Positions 17,142 through 38,275 of a stretch of 64,000 bases of DNA are shown here, piece by piece (the stretch's first letter is position 1; every line of letters starts with the position of its first letter). The DNA is taken from positions 377 to 64,376 of IMG/VR virus record IMGVR_UViG_3300045972_000291; one strand, 5' to 3'. Under the pieces are notes generated by a model that was not told the DNA's origin, did not search any database, and saw only the letters and a list, made by a program, of their open reading frames with translations. The stretch is from a virus. The position numbers were made by a program, and so were the translations under genes.

Positions 17142-17703
17142 ATGTCTTCTCCATCGTGCGATTCGACCTCCGCGATGGTAGGGGCGGCGGCGGGGCGCGT
17201 CAGCACAGTTGCTGGCCCCGCCGCCACGGGTTTGAAAAAAGGCGACGCGGAATGAAAATTTCCCTTCGGCGCCGCCCGCCTGAACTCGCCTTGGGTCGTA
17301 ACCTTGGCCAAGATCGTGAGCTTGGCGAAAAAAAAGCGACCGTTGGCGCGGTCGCGATTTCCCGTTCATCCACCCGCGCCGCTCCCTCCACCAGTGCCTC
17401 CGAGGGCGGGCTGGTCAAACACGCTCCGAACCATCGAGCGACGCGGGGGCCGCAAGGCCGTTATTCATTGTGGAATTCGGAGAGGCCCTCGTCCTATTCG
17501 CGCGATCTCGCGCGTCCGCCGTTCGCGACTGACATCGCGAACATTCGCCCCTTCTGGGGCGATTCCCTCCTCGACTTGGGCGGCTTGGCTTTGGCCTCGC
17601 CGTCCATTTTTCGAGGTTTCTTTGGCCAAGGCGTTGCCGCGCCCGGATGCCGCCGTCTGATTGTCAATCCGTCCAGGAAATACCGTGCGGAGGCGTCTTC
17701 GCG

Positions 17704-24478: not shown

Positions 24479-24490
24479 AAGGTGCGGCCG

Positions 24491-25648
24491 ATGCCGGACG
24501 ATATTGCATTTCAGGACTGGGTCGCGCGCGCCAAGGAAGCCGATATCCGCTGCGTCGCCGACCGTCTCGGCGCCCAACTCAAAAAGGCCGGCGCGAAGGA
24601 ATTCCAGGGGCCATGCCCGAAGTGCGGCGGCACCGATCGGTTCAGCCTGAACATCGCCAAGCAAGTCTTCAACTGCCGCAGCGCCGAGGGCGGCGGCGTC
24701 ATCGGGATGGTGATGCACGTCCAGGGCTGCGAATTCGTTCCGGCGTGCGAATTCATTCTCAATGAAAATGCGCCCGGCCGCGACGCCGCCTATCGCCCTG
24801 ATCCCGAAATCATGCGGGAGCGGCGCCAGGAGCGCGAGGAACATAAGATCGAGCAGGCGGTCAAGGAGCGCCACGAGGTCGACGAAGCGGTGGTCGCGGC
24901 GACGGAGATGTTCGAATCCGCGGCGCCGATTCAGAACACGAGAGCCGAAGATTATCTCGAATTCCGAGGCATCCGTCTCAGACCACAATTCGCCGCCGAT
25001 CTGCGCTTCATCCCCAACCTAGAATATTGGGGCTACGCCGATGCTGGGGCCGAAGACCTGACGATGCTGGGACGCTGGCACGCGATGGTCGCCGCGATCC
25101 GCGATGTCCACGGCCGCATCATCGGGATCCACCGGACCTATATCGAGCACGACAGGCCGGTCAAACTGCGCCCGCCCGGCGACCAGAAGCGCAACAAGGC
25201 GAAGAAGGTCTTCCGCAAGATGATGGGCGGCCTGATCCGGCTCGGTCCTGTCGGCGAGACGGTGGCGATTGGTGAAGGGATCGAGACGACGCTGTCATGG
25301 TGGCAACTCGGCTACGGGCCGGAGGACGTCACCGTCGCCTGCGGCGTCAATCTCGGCAATATGTCGGGATCCTCGACGGACACGATCCCGCATCCGAAGC
25401 ACGCCAACCAGACGATCCAGAACGGGGTTCCCGACCCCGCCCATCCCGGCATGATCCTGCCATCTGAGGTCAAAAACCTGATCCTGATCGGCGACGGCGA
25501 CAGCGATCCTCACGCAACCCGCGCAAAGCTTCTGACCGGTGCCCGCCGCTTCCGGGGCCAAGGCCTTGAGGTCTCGATTTCGATGGCGCCGGCAGGCTGC
25601 GATTTCAACGACGTGCTGCGCCGCGCGGAAGAAGTGGTGGCGGCATGA
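24491..25648 (+). CDS. DNA primase (Zn-finger + Toprim)
   Basis: GPCPKCGGTDRF...FNCR; IGIHRTY; IGEGIETTLS; LIGDGD. Confidence 0.9.
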   Translation: MPDDIAFQDWVARAKEADIRCVADRLGAQLKKAGAKEFQGPCPKCGGTDRFSLNIAKQVFNCRSAEGGGVIGMVMHVQGCEFVPACEFILNENAPGRDAAYRPDPEIMRERRQEREEHKIEQAVKERHEVDEAVVAATEMFESAAPIQNTRAEDYLEFRGIRLRPQFAADLRFIPNLEYWGYADAGAEDLTMLGRWHAMVAAIRDVHGRIIGIHRTYIEHDRPVKLRPPGDQKRNKAKKVFRKMMGGLIRLGPVGETVAIGEGIETTLSWWQLGYGPEDVTVACGVNLGNMSGSSTDTIPHPKHANQTIQNGVPDPAHPGMILPSEVKNLILIGDGDSDPHATRAKLLTGARRFRGQGLEVSISMAPAGCDFNDVLRRAEEVVAA

Positions 25649-25929
25649 CGGACGATATCGACGACGAACCCGAAGAAACATCCGAAACAGCCTTTTTTGG
25701 CCGCTTCGACGATGCGCTCGACATGCTGGTTTCCGGCGCCGTCGCCTCATCCGAGCAAGAGGACATCGACCCGTCCGAGGTCGTCAAGGACGTCGTCACG
25801 GCGCTCGTCGTCCACGCCTACGATTTTGCCGCCTCCGTGATGTCGCAAGCTGATGCCGTGGCTTTGGTCGCCGCTATTCTGCAAACCGCCTCGGAATTCT
25901 ACGGCAAAAAGGCGCGCCTCGATGCGTGA
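25645..25929 (+). CDS. Small acidic hypothetical protein
   Basis: Coupled ORF. Confidence 0.65.
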   Translation: MTDDIDDEPEETSETAFFGRFDDALDMLVSGAVASSEQEDIDPSEVVKDVVTALVVHAYDFAASVMSQADAVALVAAILQTASEFYGKKARLDA

Positions 25930-26335
25930 CGAAGCCGCCACCATTGCCTGGCACCTGGATCGCATCCGCGCGCAAAGCGACAGGATCGAGGAGCTTGAGG
26001 AAGAGGTCCGGCAGCTGCGCGAGCAATTGGCGCCGCAGATCTATTGGGCGCCCGACCTCGGATTGACGAATCTCGATAAGAGGGTTCTGGAGGCGCTGCT
26101 TGGCCGGTCGCCGACGCCGCTGACCCGGGAACGGATCATGGTTGCGGCCTATCCCGATCCCGACCGGGCGCCTGACGCCAAGATCGTCGACACCGTGATC
26201 TGCAGGATGCGGAAACGTCTGGCACTCCACGGCGTCCGGATCGGAACCGGCGGCTATAACTGCGGCTGGTTCATCGATAAAGAAAACGCCGCGATTCTCG
26301 CCAAGCTGCAGGTCAGCGGGGCGTCGCCGCCATGA
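25922..26335 (+). CDS. CtrA/OmpR-type winged-helix DNA-binding protein lacking a receiver domain
   Basis: N-terminal coiled coil, then LTRERIMVAAYPDPDRAPDAKIVDTVICRMRKRL. Confidence 0.82.
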   Translation: MRDEAATIAWHLDRIRAQSDRIEELEEEVRQLREQLAPQIYWAPDLGLTNLDKRVLEALLGRSPTPLTRERIMVAAYPDPDRAPDAKIVDTVICRMRKRLALHGVRIGTGGYNCGWFIDKENAAILAKLQVSGASPP

Positions 26336-27660
26336 ACGCACATCCATCGCCCGATTCCGCCATCATTCAGGACTTCGCGGCGTTTGAAGCGGAAACGCTG
26401 CGGATGCTGGCGCCGCCGCGCGAAAGCCGGCTGGGCCGGATCTCCATCGGCGAGGTCGCCACCCGGAAGGTCAAGCCGGCGTCCTATATCATCGACGGCT
26501 GGATGCTGGCGCGCGAACAATCATTCTTGGCCGGCGAATCCCAGAGCGGCAAATCCTTCCTGGCCCTTCACGCCGGGATGTGCATCGCCACCGGGCGCGA
26601 TGTTCTGGGCCGGAAAACCAATCCTGGTCTCGTCATCTATCAGGCCGGCGAATCGGGTTTCGGCGTCACCGGCCTCCGCATTCCGGCATGGATCCAGCAC
26701 TTCGGGGAAGGTGTCGATTTCTCTGCGGTCCCTTTCGAAATCATCCCGGCGCGCGTCAATCTGTTCCGTCCCGACGGCAACGCCGAGGAATTCCACCAGG
26801 TCGTCGCTGCGATCCAGAAGGAATGGGCCGGCCGCGCCGATCTGCGCGCCGTCATCATCGACACCATGTCCAAGGTCATGTCCGGGGCCAACGAAAACGA
26901 CGGCCGCGACGTCGGCCGCGTGCTGGAGAACGGCGAACGGATCAGCCGCGATACCGGCGCCCATGTCTGCTTCGTCCACCATCTGCCCAAAAACGGAACC
27001 GGCATGCGCGGGCACGGATCGCTGAAGGGCGACACCGATTCCGTCGTCATGGTCTCCGCGGCGCCCAACGGGGTCCGCACGGTCCTGTTCGACAAGGTCA
27101 AGGACGGCGAGGCCGGCGGGAAACTTTCGTTCGAACTCAGCCAGGTCAAGATCGGTGTCCGCGATGACGGGAAACCGATCACGTCCTGCATCGTTTCCGG
27201 CGTCGGCGAAAAGGAAGCGGCGCGCAAGGCGGAAGAGGCCAAGGGCTTTTCGCTGCGGCCGCGCGAGGAGCCGATCTTCCGGGCGCTTCTTACCGCATTG
27301 GCGCGCTATGGCCGCGTTGCCGACGCCGACATGGAGGCCAAAGGCGTTCCGGCAGGCGTCGCCGCCGTCGAGCTGTCGGAATGGCGCGAGGTCTACAAAT
27401 CCATCGCGCCGCCTGACGCCAACCTGCAGGAACCGAGCGCCGACGCGATCCGGAAGCATTTCGAACGCTACGGCCAGAGCCTGGTCCGATACGAGGTCAT
27501 CGGGTTTTCCAACCCCTATTTGTGGCATACGGGCAAGGCCATTCGCGGTTTCCCGGAGACGCATCGCAATCTGGACAAAACCCGGACAAGCGCCGGACAA
27601 AACCCGGACAATACCGGGACAACGTCTGATTGGATCAACGACCTCGGGGAGACGTTCTGA
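26332..27660 (+). CDS. AAA_25/RepA-type replicative helicase
   Basis: Walker A GESQSGKS, Walker B VIIDT, ENDGRD, VHH..K..RGHGSL. Confidence 0.9.
   Translation: MNAHPSPDSAIIQDFAAFEAETLRMLAPPRESRLGRISIGEVATRKVKPASYIIDGWMLAREQSFLAGESQSGKSFLALHAGMCIATGRDVLGRKTNPGLVIYQAGESGFGVTGLRIPAWIQHFGEGVDFSAVPFEIIPARVNLFRPDGNAEEFHQVVAAIQKEWAGRADLRAVIIDTMSKVMSGANENDGRDVGRVLENGERISRDTGAHVCFVHHLPKNGTGMRGHGSLKGDTDSVVMVSAAPNGVRTVLFDKVKDGEAGGKLSFELSQVKIGVRDDGKPITSCIVSGVGEKEAARKAEEAKGFSLRPREEPIFRALLTALARYGRVADADMEAKGVPAGVAAVELSEWREVYKSIAPPDANLQEPSADAIRKHFERYGQSLVRYEVIGFSNPYLWHTGKAIRGFPETHRNLDKTRTSAGQNPDNTGTTSDWINDLGETF
27573..27622 (+). repeat. Five GGACAA repeats at exact 11-bp spacing (iteron-like)
   Basis: Copies start at 27573, 27584, 27595, 27606 and 27617. 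Confidence 0.85.
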
Positions 27661-27896: not shown

Positions 27897-28582
27897 GCAA
27901 GCGTGATCCCGCCCGCGCCGCCACCAAGGCCATGCTGCGGGAGTTTTCGAATCGCAGGCTGGTTGTGCCAGCGCGTGTCCGATTGCCGGAGTATGCCGAC
28001 GACGATGATGATGGGATTGCCCAAGCCGGCTCTCTTGCTGCGATGCTGGATGACCCCTTGGACCCGAGATCAGCCGTCTCGCCGGCCCGCGCGCGCCGGT
28101 GGCTTGAGCAGCAGGCCCAAGATAGGGACGCCGAGCAGGTCTGGACCGTCAACGAGGTTAAGTGGCGGCTGGAGGAAGCGGCGCGGATCGGCGAACGTGT
28201 CGTCAGGCGCGACGGCCCAAGCCAGGATTTAGGGTTCTGGCCGGCGCTTGGCCGCCCCACGTTCGCCGAACAAGTCGCGATGATTGAAACTGGCGAGCTT
28301 GAACGGCTGAGGCGGCAAATCAACGACGAAGGCGGCGGCGGCGCTTCCGAAATTCAGGTCTCGCGGTTCGAACAGGCGATCATGTGGCCGATCCATTACC
28401 TCGGTCCGGATCGATTCGAGCGGGAGCGGATGGTGCTGCAATCCTGGATCAAGGCGCTGGCGTTCCGGGAGCCGTGGCGCCGCTGGATGATCGAGCCGGA
28501 GCCGACGTCGCATCGGGTCCGCTGGCAGGCGCTGGTGCTGATCACGTGCGGGCTGATCCGCGATAAAGCGAGGATGGTGTGA
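27893..28582 (+). CDS. Putative late-gene regulator (Q-position, DUF6362-like)
   Basis: WTVNEVKWRLEEAARI...GFWP...SRFEQAIMWP; located after replication genes and before the late promoter. Confidence 0.5.
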   Translation: MSKRDPARAATKAMLREFSNRRLVVPARVRLPEYADDDDDGIAQAGSLAAMLDDPLDPRSAVSPARARRWLEQQAQDRDAEQVWTVNEVKWRLEEAARIGERVVRRDGPSQDLGFWPALGRPTFAEQVAMIETGELERLRRQINDEGGGGASEIQVSRFEQAIMWPIHYLGPDRFERERMVLQSWIKALAFREPWRRWMIEPEPTSHRVRWQALVLITCGLIRDKARMV

Positions 28583-28914
28583 TGCTCGATTTCATCCGCG
28601 ATTTTCTGAGGTGGAGACGTCTTGACCGGCAAGAACGCTGCGTCGCGACGGATGTATACACGACGACATTTGTTAATGAGGACTACGAGGAAACCGGCGA
28701 GATCGTAACGCATGTCGTCGAATTCTGGATCGACGGGACCGGGAAAAGATGGACTGTTGTTGAAACTTCGGACCAATACCTTGCAAAGGAACATAACGGT
28801 ATAACCGTGGCAAAATCGAATTGGCGGCACCATGCCGACCTACCGCCCGCCGCAAAAAGGGTAAGCGGCGGGGCGCCGGTCGCGCTTGTTGTTGTCGAGC
28901 GCGACGCGGGATGA
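28579..28914 (+). CDS. Hypothetical protein
   Basis: Coupled ORF, somewhat AT-richer. Confidence 0.65.
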   Translation: MMLDFIRDFLRWRRLDRQERCVATDVYTTTFVNEDYEETGEIVTHVVEFWIDGTGKRWTVVETSDQYLAKEHNGITVAKSNWRHHADLPPAAKRVSGGAPVALVVVERDAG

Positions 28915-29228
28915 CTGCCTTCCGCCAGCGCCGCCGCGCCCGCAACCCCTACCACGGCTTTGACGAGCCGCCAGCACCCCGCCGCGCCCGGCCCATCATC
29001 CCCGAAGACGATATCAGGATCCTCAAACCCGCCGTGATCACCATGATGGTGTTGGAACGGATCGACAAGCGCGCCGGCGATGCCGAACCCTGCACCTTTG
29101 CCGAACTCTGCCTGGTCGTCGGCGGCGAAAATGCGCCCGAACTGAAGCGGACGCTGTTACGGCTGGAGCGGGAAGGGCGAATCACGGGGAAGGTCGAGGG
29201 CCGGGCGATTGCGTGGCGGCCGGCGTGA
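28911..29228 (+). CDS. Winged-helix hypothetical protein
   Basis: CTFAELC...LKRTLLRLEREGRI. Confidence 0.6.
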   Translation: MTAFRQRRRARNPYHGFDEPPAPRRARPIIPEDDIRILKPAVITMMVLERIDKRAGDAEPCTFAELCLVVGGENAPELKRTLLRLEREGRITGKVEGRAIAWRPA

Positions 29229-29340
29229 ACAAACCGCGATTTTCTGGGTCCGTTCCGTGGCGCCGAAAAGGCCGAAAAATCCGGACCTTTGGCAATAACT
29301 GTAGCAATTTCAATACCATAACATCGGTGCCGGGTGATTC

Positions 29341-29379
29341 GGACAAAAACCGGACAAAATGCGGACAAAACCCGGACAG
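29341..29379 (+). repeat. Four GGACA(A/G) repeats at 11-bp spacing followed by phased A-tracts
   Basis: Copies start at 29341, 29352, 29363 and 29374; same unit as in the helicase gene. Confidence 0.85.
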
Positions 29380-29527
29380 GCCTCAAAAAGCGGGTCTGGC
29401 GCCAAAATCCGTCAAGCAAAATCAGCCTGAAAACAGGACTGAAATGAAAAATAGTTGAAGCCCTTTGAAATCATGAGTTTGAGGCCGAAAAAGCCCCGAA
29501 AATCGGTATTTGATCTACGCCCCCTTA

Positions 29528-29557
29528 TTGACGTGGAGGGATTTGTCGGTCTTTCAT
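29528..29557 (+). promoter_or_regulatory. Putative late (PR'-like) promoter
   Basis: TTGACG at 29528-29533, identical to the two early promoter -35 boxes; -10 is weak. Confidence 0.5.
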
Positions 29558-29562
29558 GCGCT

Positions 29563-29732
29563 AGTCAGCCTCGGCATAGTTAGTGACCGATCAGACAGCG
29601 CTGGATCTGAGTTGATGAGCGTGAGGCGGCCTCAAGCCGCCGCTCTCTCACACAGTGCGAGTCTCTTATATCAGCGGTAACATTGTTGATGTTGATAGAG
29701 GCGGTTCAGATTCTTAACAATGCCGAGGCCGG
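29563..29732 (+). ncRNA. Candidate structured non-coding RNA / late leader
   Basis: GCCTCGGCAT (29568-77) pairs perfectly with ATGCCGAGGC (29720-29), extended by GTTA/TAAC; internal hairpins GGCGGC-CTCAA-GCCGCC and TATCAGC/GTTGATA. Confidence 0.55.
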
Positions 29733-29850
29733 AAGATTTTTCCGAATCGGTGGCCGATAACGATCCTTCCTTCGCTGGCTTGATTCGGACCGCGCGCGCT
29801 GTCCGGTTTTTGAGGTTCTCCAGATGTCATCACCTGATCGATCACGCATC

Positions 29851-29938
29851 GGAGCGGTGGCAGAGAGGCTTATTGCGTCGGTCCCGAAAACCGAAGGACC
29901 GCAAGGTTCCGTGGGTTCAAATCCCACCCGCTCCTCCA
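29851..29938 (+). tRNA. tRNA-Ser(CGA), atypical C33 and U73
   Basis: GGAGCGG/CCGCTCC acceptor, TCGGT-CCCGAAA-ACCGA anticodon arm, long variable arm, GTGGG-TTCAAAT-CCCAC T arm, encoded CCA. Confidence 0.88.
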
Positions 29939-29959
29939 ACCGACAGCAACGCTAGACGA

Positions 29960-30034
29960 TCCCGCTTCGTCTAGTCGGTAGGACAAGGGCCTTTGAAGCC
30001 CTCAACCTTGGTTCGAGCCCAAGAGCGGGAACCA
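29960..30034 (+). tRNA. tRNA-Gln(TTG)
   Basis: TCCCGCT/AGCGGGA acceptor, AGGGC-CTTTGAA-GCCCT anticodon arm, CTTGG-TTCGAGC-CCAAG T arm, CCA. Confidence 0.92.
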
Positions 30035-30153
30035 GTTCAAAGCGCAGAACTGCGGCCAAGGCCCGTCACTGGATGGGATGCTTTCCGTAGGTGTGCGCAG
30101 ATCGGCATGCATCTGGCTCCGGGGCGCTCCGAACCTGATGCCGCCGAGAGTTT

Positions 30154-30231
<78 letters not shown>

Positions 30232-30252
30232 CATCCCCAGGGAGGAGCGCAC

Positions 30253-30459
30253 ATGACCGGCTGGCCATTCGACGGCGCGCCGAAGCGCGTCCGACTCGAC
30301 GCCGATCTCTACGACCACGCCAAAGCGGGAGAACCGCGCCCGGCCGAACCGGCGCGCGACACCGTGCTGGTGGATCAGCCTCTGCGTATGGTTGGGGCGG
30401 ATCGGGGGAGGATTGAGGACCAAAAACGACCGCAGGGGCCGGATTGTGACTGCCGTTAA
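30253..30459 (+). CDS. Hypothetical protein
   Basis: Strong SD GGAGGAG before ATG. Confidence 0.5.
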   Translation: MTGWPFDGAPKRVRLDADLYDHAKAGEPRPAEPARDTVLVDQPLRMVGADRGRIEDQKRPQGPDCDCR

Positions 30460-30754
30460 AAAAACCACGAAAAAACAGCTTCCGCCTGGGCCGGGCCGCC
30501 CCAAAGGCCAGCCCAACAAGACGACCAAGATCCTCAAGGAAGCGATCCTCGAAGCGGCAACCAGCGCGGGCGGGAAAGATGGCATCGTCGGCTATCTGAA
30601 GACCCAGGCGACGAAGAACCCCGGACCGTTCATGGCCCTGCTCGCGAAAGTGCTCCCGCTTCAATTGACCGGCCCCGGCGACGGCCCTGTACAGGTGGCG
30701 AAAGTTGAATGGGCGATTGTCGATCCTTCGTCCGACGATAGCGAGGGCGTTTAA
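30446..30754 (+). CDS. Terminase small subunit (putative)
   Basis: GPGRPKGQPNKTTKILKEAILEAA...GIVGYLK...FMALLAKVLP; immediately before TerL. Confidence 0.75.
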   Translation: MTAVKKTTKKQLPPGPGRPKGQPNKTTKILKEAILEAATSAGGKDGIVGYLKTQATKNPGPFMALLAKVLPLQLTGPGDGPVQVAKVEWAIVDPSSDDSEGV

Positions 30755-31940
30755 GCCTCTGCTTGCACCGCGCCGCTACAAGGGCGCGCGGGGAGGCCGC
30801 GGCGGGGCAAAATCGCACTTCTTCGCCACGCTCGCCGTCATGGAGGCTGTGACCGGTCATCAGCGATTTGTCTTCGCCCGCGAGGTGCAGAACTCAATCG
30901 CGGATTCATCCAAGCAGCTGGTCGAGGATAAAATCCGGCAATTCGGGCTGGCCGACCAGTTCAAGATCACGGATCAGGAAATCATTTACCCGGCGACGGA
31001 CTCGCTGTTTGTTTTCCGCGGCCTGATGAAGCACACGGTTTCATCGGTCAAATCGATGGAAGGCTTCACGCGCCTCAATCTTGAGGAGGCGCAGACGATC
31101 AGCAAGAGGTCGCTTGAGATCGCGGTCCCGACGTTCCGCGCGCCTGGCTCGCAGATATGGGCGGCGTGGAACCCGGTCAAAGACACCGATCCGATCGACA
31201 AGCTTTTCGTCGACAACAGGGACGATCCCGACTTCGCGCTGGTCGACGTCAACTATTACGACAATCCATGGTTTCCAGCCGAACTCAGGAAGGACATGGA
31301 GCGCGACAAGGCGCGCGACCCCGACAAATATGCGCACGTCTGGCTTGGCCACTACCAGCGCAATTCCGAAGCGCGGGTTTTCCGCAATTGGACGGTTCGG
31401 AAGTTCGATACGCTGGCCAATGCGCGGTTCTATTTTGGCGCCGACTGGGGATTTTCGGTCGATCCGTCCGTTCTGGTCCGATGTTTCATCGATGGGCGGA
31501 CGCTTTATGTCGACCAGGAGGCATACAAGGTCGGATGCGAAATCGACCACACACCGGAGCTTTTCGATACAATTCCTGGCTCTCGCAAATGGCCCATCAC
31601 GGCGGATAGCGCCCGACCGGAAACGATCAGCTATATGGTCCGCAAGGGATTCAGGATCAAACCTGCGGTCAAGGGCGCGGGCTCGATAGAAGAAGGCATC
31701 GAATTCCTGAAAAATTACGATATCGTCGTGCATCCGAGATGCACCCACACAGCCGATGAACTGGCGCTTTACTCGTTCAAGACCGACAAGCTGACGGGAG
31801 ACGTTCTGCCTGTCCTTGAGGACAAAGAAAATCACGTCATCGACGCTTTGCGTTATGCGGTTGAAGGGCTGAGGCGAGGCGGCATGATGGTTATTTCGGA
31901 CAATGCCGTGCGCGCCGCAATGACAGGCGGCCGTCGATGA
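30705..31940 (+). CDS. Terminase large subunit, PBSX family
   Basis: GGRGGAKS Walker A, AREVQNSIADS, EEAQ, WNP, GADWGF, ADSARPE, NHVIDALRYA. Confidence 0.95.
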   Translation: MNGRLSILRPTIARAFKPLLAPRRYKGARGGRGGAKSHFFATLAVMEAVTGHQRFVFAREVQNSIADSSKQLVEDKIRQFGLADQFKITDQEIIYPATDSLFVFRGLMKHTVSSVKSMEGFTRLNLEEAQTISKRSLEIAVPTFRAPGSQIWAAWNPVKDTDPIDKLFVDNRDDPDFALVDVNYYDNPWFPAELRKDMERDKARDPDKYAHVWLGHYQRNSEARVFRNWTVRKFDTLANARFYFGADWGFSVDPSVLVRCFIDGRTLYVDQEAYKVGCEIDHTPELFDTIPGSRKWPITADSARPETISYMVRKGFRIKPAVKGAGSIEEGIEFLKNYDIVVHPRCTHTADELALYSFKTDKLTGDVLPVLEDKENHVIDALRYAVEGLRRGGMMVISDNAVRAAMTGGRR

Positions 31941-37438: not shown

Positions 37439-37846
37439 ATGGGAACGACCGTTACCGTTGCATCCAAACTTCCGCATGGGCTCATCCTGCAGAACAGCCG
37501 CCCCATCATGGACGGCGAAAAGGTCCTGACGTGGGTCAAGGAAGGCCCTGAGGTCGTCATCAAAGGCGCGGCGACCCGCGTCGGCGAGGTGATCGGCAAG
37601 GAGATCGCCGGCGGGTTCGCGCTGACGCATGGCGTCGACGCCGAATTCTTCGCGGCATGGATCGCCCATCATGCGGAATTTCCCGCCGTGAAGGAGGGTC
37701 TGATCTTCGCTTACGAGAAGCCCAACGCGGCTGCGTCGCAGGCGAAGGAGTTCGCGGAACTGAAATCGGGGTTCGAGCCTGTCGACCCGGAAAACCTGCC
37801 CGACGAATTCAAAGCGCCCGGGGCGTCCATCGAGAAGTCGGCCTGA
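37439..37846 (+). CDS. Head-associated structural protein
   Basis: TVTVASKLPHGL...FALTHGVDAEFF; follows the capsid gene. Confidence 0.7.
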   Translation: MGTTVTVASKLPHGLILQNSRPIMDGEKVLTWVKEGPEVVIKGAATRVGEVIGKEIAGGFALTHGVDAEFFAAWIAHHAEFPAVKEGLIFAYEKPNAAASQAKEFAELKSGFEPVDPENLPDEFKAPGASIEKSA

Positions 37847-37849
37847 TCG

Positions 37850-38275
37850 ATGGGCGCCGTCGCCAGCTTCAACGGCTCAGCCTGGATGGCCCGCTATCCG
37901 GAATTCAGGCATGTGCCGCTGACGCTGGTCGAATCCTACTTTGCCGAGGCCGGGCTCTATCATTCCAATGATGGGTCCGGCCCGGTTCGCGATGCCGGCC
38001 AACAGCTGCTGCTGATGGGCATGGTGACGGCGCACATCGCGGCGCTCTATGCCAGAAATGAGGACGGTGAGGCGGCGTCGCCGCTCGTCGGCCGCATCAC
38101 GAACGCGTCCGAGGGCAGCGTCTCGGTTCAGACCCAAAGCGATTATCCGCCCGGCTCGGCGCAGTGGTGGCAGCAGTCCAAATACGGCGCATCCTATTGG
38201 GCCGCGACATCGGGCTACCGCACCATGCATTACCGGCCCGGCCGCGGGCGCTTTCTTGGGTCAGTCCCGCGCTGA
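37850..38275 (+). CDS. Head-tail adaptor (DUF4054-like)
   Basis: RYPEF...AHIAAL...VGRITNASEGSVSV...WWQQSKYGASYW. Confidence 0.85.
   Translation: MGAVASFNGSAWMARYPEFRHVPLTLVESYFAEAGLYHSNDGSGPVRDAGQQLLLMGMVTAHIAALYARNEDGEAASPLVGRITNASEGSVSVQTQSDYPPGSAQWWQQSKYGASYWAATSGYRTMHYRPGRGRFLGSVPR

Follow-up and report, generated by a model that had tools for sequence, protein, structure and literature searches.

A conserved structured element, probably an RNA, at the head of the tRNA and late genes of a metagenomic phage

Structured non-coding RNAs (ncRNAs) encoded by phages and prophages include GOLLD and ROOL, which often lie beside tRNA islands, with one GOLLD located downstream of a Met-tRNA (PMC12286853). 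The subject of the present study is likewise phage-encoded, structured and next to tRNA genes. It is an element of ~162 nucleotides (nt) at positions 29568-29729, on the plus strand of a 64,000-nt stretch of DNA, referred to throughout as the window, from IMG/VR virus record IMGVR_UViG_3300045972_000291. The window makes up most of this 66.9-kb phage record, which originates from a pond metagenome. In contrast to GOLLD and ROOL, which are 500-800 nt long, contain many pseudoknots and form multimeric cages, the element measures ~165 nt and was matched by neither of the two Rfam models, and it lies immediately after a promoter box, ahead of the tRNAs. It can be placed among the phage structured RNAs at the early/late boundary by tRNA genes, a known kind, with a fold and a size of its own.

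The putL and putR sequences of phage HK022 bring about processive antitermination through RNA only, without a dedicated protein, and consist of ~70 nt with two stem-loops (PMC9378689). By analogy with put, the element may be a folded RNA right after a phage promoter that heads a long operon with terminators, and this likeness supplies the working model that is weighed below.

In lambda, the leader of the PR' transcript (the '6S' transcript) is ended by tR' and is read through with Q; a conserved fold is not known to be required in that leader. The window resembles lambda in having a promoter-like site at the early/late boundary, an apparently untranslated leader of ~200 nt, a hairpin with a U-run and then the late genes. 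The loading of Q has been described (bioRxiv 10.1101/2022.03.25.485794). In the window there is no Q-family gene upstream, a 105-amino acid (aa) winged-helix protein being encoded there instead, and tRNAs stand between the leader and the late genes. An earlier interpretation made from the letters of the window (the sequence-only reading) had proposed a leader of the lambda PR'-tR' type controlled by a protein in the Q position. A candidate promoter, a predicted ~245-nt leader and a hairpin with a U-run can be recognized, but no Q-family signature was detected with Pfam or PHROGs in open reading frame (ORF) 28821-29228 or in its two upstream neighbours.

The T4 'species 1 and 2' (rnaC and rnaD) are small stable RNAs of unknown function that are co-transcribed with phage tRNAs and cut from a common precursor. 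They have no sequence relation to the element, come from a virulent coliphage, and no late operon begins with them. In length and in its paired 5' and 3' ends, 6S RNA is similar to the element, and a 6S-like polymerase decoy was among the earlier proposals. This one is not supported, as no 6S model matched at an expectation value (E) of 10 and the shared fold branches at a junction, whereas 6S RNA is a rod with an open bubble at its centre. Several other known RNAs were considered and rejected, namely a retron msr-msd RNA (no RVT_1 match in the 66.9-kb phage record), a Y RNA or YrlA (no match to a Y-RNA model, and no TROVE match in the phage record, though the host may encode a Ro), and a hammerhead or other known ribozyme or a remnant of 5S RNA or tmRNA (no Rfam signal).

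Stability and conservation of the element

The element is real, conserved, structured and uncatalogued. As plus-strand RNA, the 183-nt stretch that holds it has a minimum free energy (MFE) of -73.7 kcal/mol, compared to -55.6 +/- 4.3 kcal/mol for shuffled sequences (z -4.24), and none of the 200 shuffles folded as well. All of the stems that the sequence-only reading had listed are present, in a fold that is beyond chance. In a scan corrected for G+C content (GC), the segment with the element had the fifth-lowest score among 1600 plus-strand segments; of the four that scored below it, three are distinct places. When Rfam 15 was run over 28500-31000 at E <= 10, only three tRNAs were found and nothing overlapped 29560-29750, and the whole window at gathering score returned the same three tRNAs only. 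The Rfam search that had been called for matched no family over the element, even at E 10.

The sole ORF across the element is 29510-29680 (56 aa), which crosses the unconserved promoter region and is itself not conserved, the relatives carrying two separate 1-nt insertions. The earlier statement that there is no credible ORF is therefore sound. The changes within the element, which come in runs of three and include two separate 1-nt indels, mark it as non-coding.

Relatives were sought in several collections. A set of 207 loci related through the large terminase TerL (TerL identity <= 75%), gathered from IMG/VR, GTDB genomes and JGI metagenomes, yielded no copy of the element by blastn, nhmmer or covariance model R1, and a tRNA scan of the 20 closest of these loci found no tRNAs, so that the RNA cassette is not part of the packaging module. 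No homologue was found by blastn against GenBank phages, against plasmids or over ~800 genomes from the order and class of the nearest TerL host, by IMG/VR pattern scans with two conserved blocks, or by covariance model R2 over 151 genomes. The arms of the closing stem P1 had eight matches in IMG/VR, all of them unrelated sequences. Two weak candidates were also discarded: L235 (23 bits), in which P1 and the second long-range helix, P2, are largely unpaired, and L236 (24.6 bits), which is really the 3' end of a protein gene with the terminator hairpin of that gene. The protein encoded directly upstream of the element has one relative cluster among 5.8 billion proteins. Relatives with a 116-aa form of this protein have other genes downstream and lack the element, which is also missing from the P0011 lineage, related through the first late ORF. 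Further copies are probably present on several ENA contigs for which no DNA is deposited.

The element was found in one further lineage, reached through the upstream gene and here called lineage B, which comprises the metagenomic phage contigs L229/L231/L245, L234/L242 and the partial L232, all minor variants of one another. These contigs align to window 28922-29744 at ~74% identity. The comparison thus rests on two independent lineages, the window and lineage B, and the fold alignment on three full sequences. The terminases of lineage B are Terminase_2 or Terminase_6N, as opposed to Terminase_3 in the window; as judged from these contigs, the element travels with the upstream winged-helix gene and a set of repeats and not with one terminase type. 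Identity between the window and L229 varies along the region as follows.

Upstream gene: 80.8%
Spacer after the upstream gene: 60%
CGGACA repeat array, 29337-80: 88.6%
Spacer before the promoter box: 51%
Promoter spacer, from the box to P1: 49%
Element, 29568-29729: 85.4%
Downstream, 29730-29850: 45%

The edges of this island of identity are sharp and coincide with the two arms of P1. The suggestion of an undescribed phage ncRNA fits both the lack of an Rfam match and this sharp island in a second lineage.

The shared fold

The fold common to both lineages was taken as the RNAalifold consensus of the three full sequences, and it differs from the single-sequence MFE fold of the window. It is a multi-branch junction closed by P1 and P2, with P2 enclosing three hairpins (P4, P5 and P6). 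Its 47 pairs are 100% paired in every sequence, whereas 12 of the 62 pairs in the MFE fold of the window are unpaired in lineage B, with 87% of the cells paired. The helices, all on the plus strand, are listed below.

29568-77/29720-29 (10 bp, perfect) and 29579-82/29715-18: P1, the closing stem, 14 bp with a bulged A between its two parts
29584-86/29591-93: mini-hairpin of 3 bp, within 29584-29593
29604-14/29702-12: P2, 11 bp, the helix previously offered as an alternative
29625-30/29636-41: P4 hairpin, a 6-bp stem of G and C with loop 29631-35
29645-51/29655-61: P5 hairpin, 3+3 bp with loop ACA
29668-74/29686-92: P6 hairpin, a 7-bp invariant stem that includes two G.U pairs

P1 is the only helix with a high predicted probability in all three ensembles (0.8-0.99), with one pair changed from A-U to G.U, and it was also found as an inverted repeat of 15 nt that is 93% complementary. 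It corresponds to the closing stem proposed before, in which the 10 perfect pairs are followed, after the bulged A, by 29579-82/83 with 29714/15-18. P4, likewise foreseen, keeps an invariant stem, although four of its five loop bases are changed in lineage B. A longer hairpin had been drawn at 29663-29700 and is present in the window, but the relatives keep only its inner 7 bp, the stem of P6; the 12 nt at the top of P6, above the invariant stem, are variable, most bases being different in lineage B. P1, P4 and the P6 stem are the firm parts of the fold.

P2 is 11 (at most 12) bp long with four G.U pairs in the window. None of the 11 pairs is lost in either lineage, and three of the G.U pairs of the window are Watson-Crick pairs in lineage B. 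As the sequence-only reading noted, TCTGA at 29606-10 can pair with 29591-95 or, within the 11-bp helix, with 29702-12. These helices are mutually exclusive, and the long one is fully paired in both lineages; on the other hand, the two exclusive conformers that were envisaged come with no evidence of switching, and both pairings are essentially outside the thermodynamic ensemble of the window, with probabilities of 0.001 and 0.005. P5 has a probability of 0.95 in lineage B versus 0.006 in the window, and a rival 8-bp pairing (29593-601 with 29655-64) is equally conserved, excludes P5 and would make a pseudoknot with P2. Three stretches, 29594-601, 29615-24 and 29662-67, are invariant and single-stranded. 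The 3' arm of the U-run hairpin described below is complementary to 29594-601 over 8 nt, most simply as a by-product of inverted CGGACA repeats, and a boxA-like CUCUUA at 29663-68 (an invariant 6-mer) was dropped, as the rrn boxA of the host is not definable and the E. coli boxA pattern is rarer than the control in a Rhizobiales genome.

All 24 variable columns of the alignment are either unpaired or keep their pair, with one compensatory change and four one-sided ones. Six of 94 paired columns vary, all of them keeping the pair, versus 18 of 70 unpaired columns, a difference (Fisher p 7e-4) that is partly circular because the shared fold was chosen on the same alignment. The energy of the alignment fold has a z of -3.9 relative to 300 column shuffles, none of which did as well. 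The sole compensatory change (U-A to C-G) sits in the mini-hairpin, which is weak, since 29593 has two other possible partners. The covariation check advocated earlier thus gave one compensatory change with every pair kept, but only one second lineage in which to look. With two lineages, the comparative support for the shared fold is suggestive and falls short of proof.

Position ahead of the tRNA and late genes

The following features, all on the plus strand, surround the element.

29337-29378: CGGACA(AAA) repeats, four copies at 11-bp spacing, given as ~190-230 bp upstream of the promoter box
29528-29533: -35-like box TTGACG (TTGACA in lineage B), with P1 exactly 34 nt downstream in each of the two lineages
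29551-29556: weak -10 candidate CTTTCA, with a 17-nt spacer, below the threshold of the consensus scan
29785-29811: hairpin (6+2 bp) with UUUUU, a candidate leaky terminator or attenuator

The distance from the TTGAC(G/A) box to P1 is fixed although the intervening bases are only 49% identical. A start of the RNA shortly after TTGACG had been assumed, and the box is there, but one base to the left of the implied place, 34 nt before the stem; transcription would begin at about 29563-29565. A -10-like CATAGT at 29575-80 is invariant but also part of P1. The consensus scan gave only one other promoter-like site before the tRNAs, a 9/12 match inside the element (29692-29721), and a sigma54 promoter was rejected, GG-N10-GC being seen by eye in lineage B only.

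Between the element and the tRNAs the sole terminator-like feature is the hairpin at 29785-29811, of which the TGTCCGGTTTTT block is kept in lineage B inside the 45%-identical flank. The small hairpin at 29731-45 had been singled out earlier for its U-run; it is real, but the U-run is in its loop; it is no terminator, and the relatives do not preserve it. The U-run hairpin at 29785-29811 stays with the element while the tRNA set varies, with three tRNAs in the window versus one in lineage B. The parts thus follow in the order repeats, promoter box, folded domain, U-run hairpin, tRNA set, first late ORF and packaging genes. In lineage B there are ~17 nt from the U-run to tRNA-Met, and as this leaves no room for a promoter after the U-run, the element and the tRNA are probably on one transcript. 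Such a transcript would start with the 165 nt of the element, which is therefore read as the leader of the tRNA-late operon, and an operon that is long, on the plus strand and begins behind a stop signal suggests control by read-through. The element is probably the RNA at the head of the tRNA-late transcript, as had been claimed before; the grounds are anatomical only, namely the fixed-distance -35 box, the tRNA-Met spacing and the Shine-Dalgarno sequence (SD) of the late ORF.

Further CGGACA(AAA) repeats form an array of five copies within the 3' end of the helicase gene (~27573-27630), and the U-run of the hairpin comes from an inverted copy at 29800-29810. The repeats are conserved in lineage B, where they are at L229 ~1251-1295 and 1744-1762, and there one copy lies inside the element and two inverted copies after it. 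They may be activator sites of the promoter or iterons of an origin.

The genes around the element are as follows, all on the plus strand.

24482-25648: primase, upstream
25853-26335: CtrA-like winged-helix protein, upstream
26332-27660: AAA_25 RepA-like helicase, upstream
28911-29228: gene directly upstream of the element, 105 aa
29851-29938: tRNA-Ser(CGA), absent from lineage B
29960-30034: tRNA-Gln(UUG), absent from lineage B
30154-30231: initiator-like tRNA-Met(CAU), kept in lineage B ~110 nt after the element
30253-30459: first ORF after the RNA genes, 68 aa, with SD GGGAGGAG
From 30392: small-terminase-like gene, downstream
From 30705: TerL (Terminase_3), downstream
From 31937: portal gene, downstream

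Of the genes examined, which run from replication to packaging and head (window 19.6-41.6 kb), every one is on the plus strand, and the ~1.1 kb between the replication and packaging genes is without credible coding sequence and holds the element and the three tRNA genes. Three small ORFs after the helicase gene match no known families in Pfam or PHROGs. The structure neighbours of the 105-aa upstream protein in the Atlas are winged helices of the MarR, Rrf2 and BlaI type (template modelling (TM) scores of 0.52-0.56), and from its predicted structure it looks like a small winged-helix DNA binder.

The only tRNA common to both lineages is tRNA-Met(CAU) (window 30154-30231; L229 1774-1852). Its 3' end is CCCCGCAACCA with an encoded CCA, the top of its acceptor stem is mismatched, and two of the three G-C pairs of the anticodon stem are present (A29:U41). 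The strong SD of the first late ORF is 22 nt past tRNA-Met. The 68-aa product of this ORF (30253-30459) belongs to no known family; its homologues, of 65-97 aa, precede differing genes for the terminase small subunit in several metagenomic phages. In L229 an insertion on the opposite strand, a HigB-like toxin gene with a partner ORF (2124-2710), separates tRNA-Met from the first late ORF; in the window this slot is empty.

Elsewhere in the window, GC-corrected fold outliers equal to the element were seen at 27161-27330 and 37801-38090 (plus strand), within long ORFs. A multi-hairpin fold on the plus strand at 17400-17700 (MFE -143.9 kcal/mol, z -3.58, MFE frequency 0.012) is in a stretch of lower GC that has only overlapping weak ORFs, and it presents a CCUCC-rich loop that resembles an anti-SD. 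A sub-threshold Rfam match to the alphaproteobacterial small RNA mmgR/suhB lies at 17541-17617 (24.6 bits, with a gathering score of 41, and E 0.017). The region 17400-17700 may be a second small-RNA locus of the phage.

A leader RNA and the alternatives

That the element works as a plus-strand RNA of some kind is rather likely. The best explanation, which is held with moderate confidence, is that a selectively conserved, structured plus-strand RNA domain of ~165 nt forms the 5' end of a transcript from the TTGAC(G/A) promoter into the tRNAs and the packaging and late genes, where it acts as a leader. P1, with its 14 bp, would join the start of the transcript to a site 150 nt further on; the long-range helix P2 would come next, and then a junction from which three hairpins extend, with three single-stranded stretches that are invariant. 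As an operon leader the domain would stand ahead of the U-run hairpin, past which RNA polymerase has to get before it can transcribe the tRNAs and late genes, and it might make the polymerase resistant to the stop, in cis and in the manner of put, or offer a factor a place to bind. The timing of the promoter could be set by the phased CGGACA sites upstream of it, and processing of the tRNA 5' end would free the domain as a stable RNA with closed ends. A specific cis-acting role in read-through is a tentative and rather doubtful part of this proposal. Improbable, though the most far-reaching form of it, is a new class of processive antiterminator that is RNA-only or RNA-nucleated. It would be a 165-nt junction RNA from the late promoter of alphaproteobacterial-type phages that remains on RNA polymerase past the U-run hairpin and the tRNAs and along the late operon, of which at least 12 kb were read, with a put-like function, an unrelated fold and an exchangeable tRNA slot.

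A number of observations weigh against the leader. In the fold, the single compensatory change falls in a 3-bp hairpin, there are two independent lineages, and transitions at G.U pairs always preserve pairing, which limits what can be drawn from kept pairs. The structure conservation index (0.87) is no better than that of column shuffles (0.82 +/- 0.05), the ensemble probability of P2 is low in every single sequence (0.005-0.13), and the shared fold is 2-7 kcal/mol above each MFE. The interior architecture is hence provisional, given its thin and partly circular support, the low probability of P2 and the conserved competing pairing. At the ends of the proposed leader, the -10 box is weak and not conserved (the counterpart in lineage B is TAACTC or GTACTC), and the hairpin at 29785-29806 with its U5 (-10.7 kcal/mol) is no better than shuffles, its U-run doubling as the A-tract of an inverted CGGACA repeat. 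The model from HK022 is also imperfect, as put has adjacent stem-loops, no long-range closing stem and a place in the early operons of lambdoid coliphages, in contrast to a 162-165-nt junction with two long-range helices in a late operon. The fold energies, finally, do not all point to the plus strand, as the following values show.

Window, RNA MFE: plus -73.7 kcal/mol, minus -64.2 kcal/mol
Lineage B, RNA MFE: plus -63 and -65 kcal/mol, minus -73 kcal/mol
Alignment fold: plus -57 kcal/mol, minus -61 kcal/mol
DNA fold, z: plus -3.9, minus -4.6, both strands folding equally well as DNA

The minus-strand consensus leaves nine pairs unpaired in the window, whereas the plus-strand consensus, which has 4-6 G.U pairs, leaves none. 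Together with the promoter box, the orientation of genes and tRNAs and the lack of a conserved block on the other side, this means that the plus strand is favoured rather than settled.

The main rival, in itself unlikely, is a stand-alone stable small RNA that acts in trans on a protein or RNA of the host or phage, as a polymerase decoy, a sponge or an anti-defence RNA, either ending at the U-run (~245 nt) or trimmed to the core closed by P1, with the tRNAs as mere neighbours. Pairing of the 5' and 3' ends, here by P1, is a common trait of stable RNAs; the element comes with a promoter box of its own and with a U-run hairpin, its invariant single-stranded stretches resemble binding surfaces, and it is independent of the terminase type. 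There is also a precedent in the phage RNAs beside tRNA islands (PMC12286853). What speaks against a separate small RNA is that in lineage B the tRNA follows the U-run too closely for a promoter of its own and that the terminator is weak; in addition, no protein-binding RNA family was matched in Rfam, and there is no Ro/TROVE gene in the phage.

A function at the level of DNA has a still smaller chance. The element could be an origin-linked signal, either a folded single-strand priming signal or a cruciform between iteron arrays, or it could be an inverted-repeat segment that is flipped by an invertase. On IncQ plasmids, ssiA and ssiB adjoin the iterons. The CGGACA iterons are phased at 11 bp before the element, with an inverted copy after it and one inside it in lineage B, the genes for the primase and the AAA_25 RepA-like helicase are just upstream, and a perfect 10-bp inverted repeat bounds the element, which also folds on both DNA strands and holds the promoter-like site at 29692-29721. 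However, the 4-6 G.U pairs of the shared fold become A.C mismatches on the other strand, P6 retains two invariant G.U pairs, and the fixed distance of the -35 box is left unexplained. Against inversion in particular stand the same orientation in five of five independent assemblies, the lack of a joint in the contig of the source run (contigs hide rare variants) and the lack of a recombinase gene among the neighbouring genes. Beyond the source contig, two DNA runs gave only unrelated tRNA matches.

A functional RNA from the minus strand, antisense to the late operon, is very unlikely. The energies of lineage B and of the alignment fold listed above would fit it, but in the window the plus strand is the more stable by 9 kcal/mol, the minus consensus leaves nine pairs open there, the minus side has no conserved promoter box (the flank is 45% identical), and the surrounding genes and the three tRNAs are on the plus strand. 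Least credible of all is that the element has no function of its own, being a piece of DNA that was exchanged lately or diverges slowly and folds well by chance, for while only two lineages are at hand, the structure conservation index does not exceed that of shuffles and a few coding windows of the same phage fold as well after GC correction, the identity has sharp edges at the ends of P1 (49%, 85% and 45%), the changes avoid paired columns, and no shuffle folds as well, out of 200 of the sequence and 300 of the alignment columns.

Phage structured RNAs beside tRNA genes, such as GOLLD, ROOL and the stable RNAs of T4, have been known for decades without a function, and how phages that lack an N or Q of the lambda type move RNA polymerase through long late operons is an open question for most groups. 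The element offers a small and tractable case, in which the fixed order of the parts makes a direct test of read-through feasible. Should it not control read-through, it would be one more orphan family of phage RNAs, so far in two metagenomic lineages; if it does, a second fold would be added to RNA-based antitermination.

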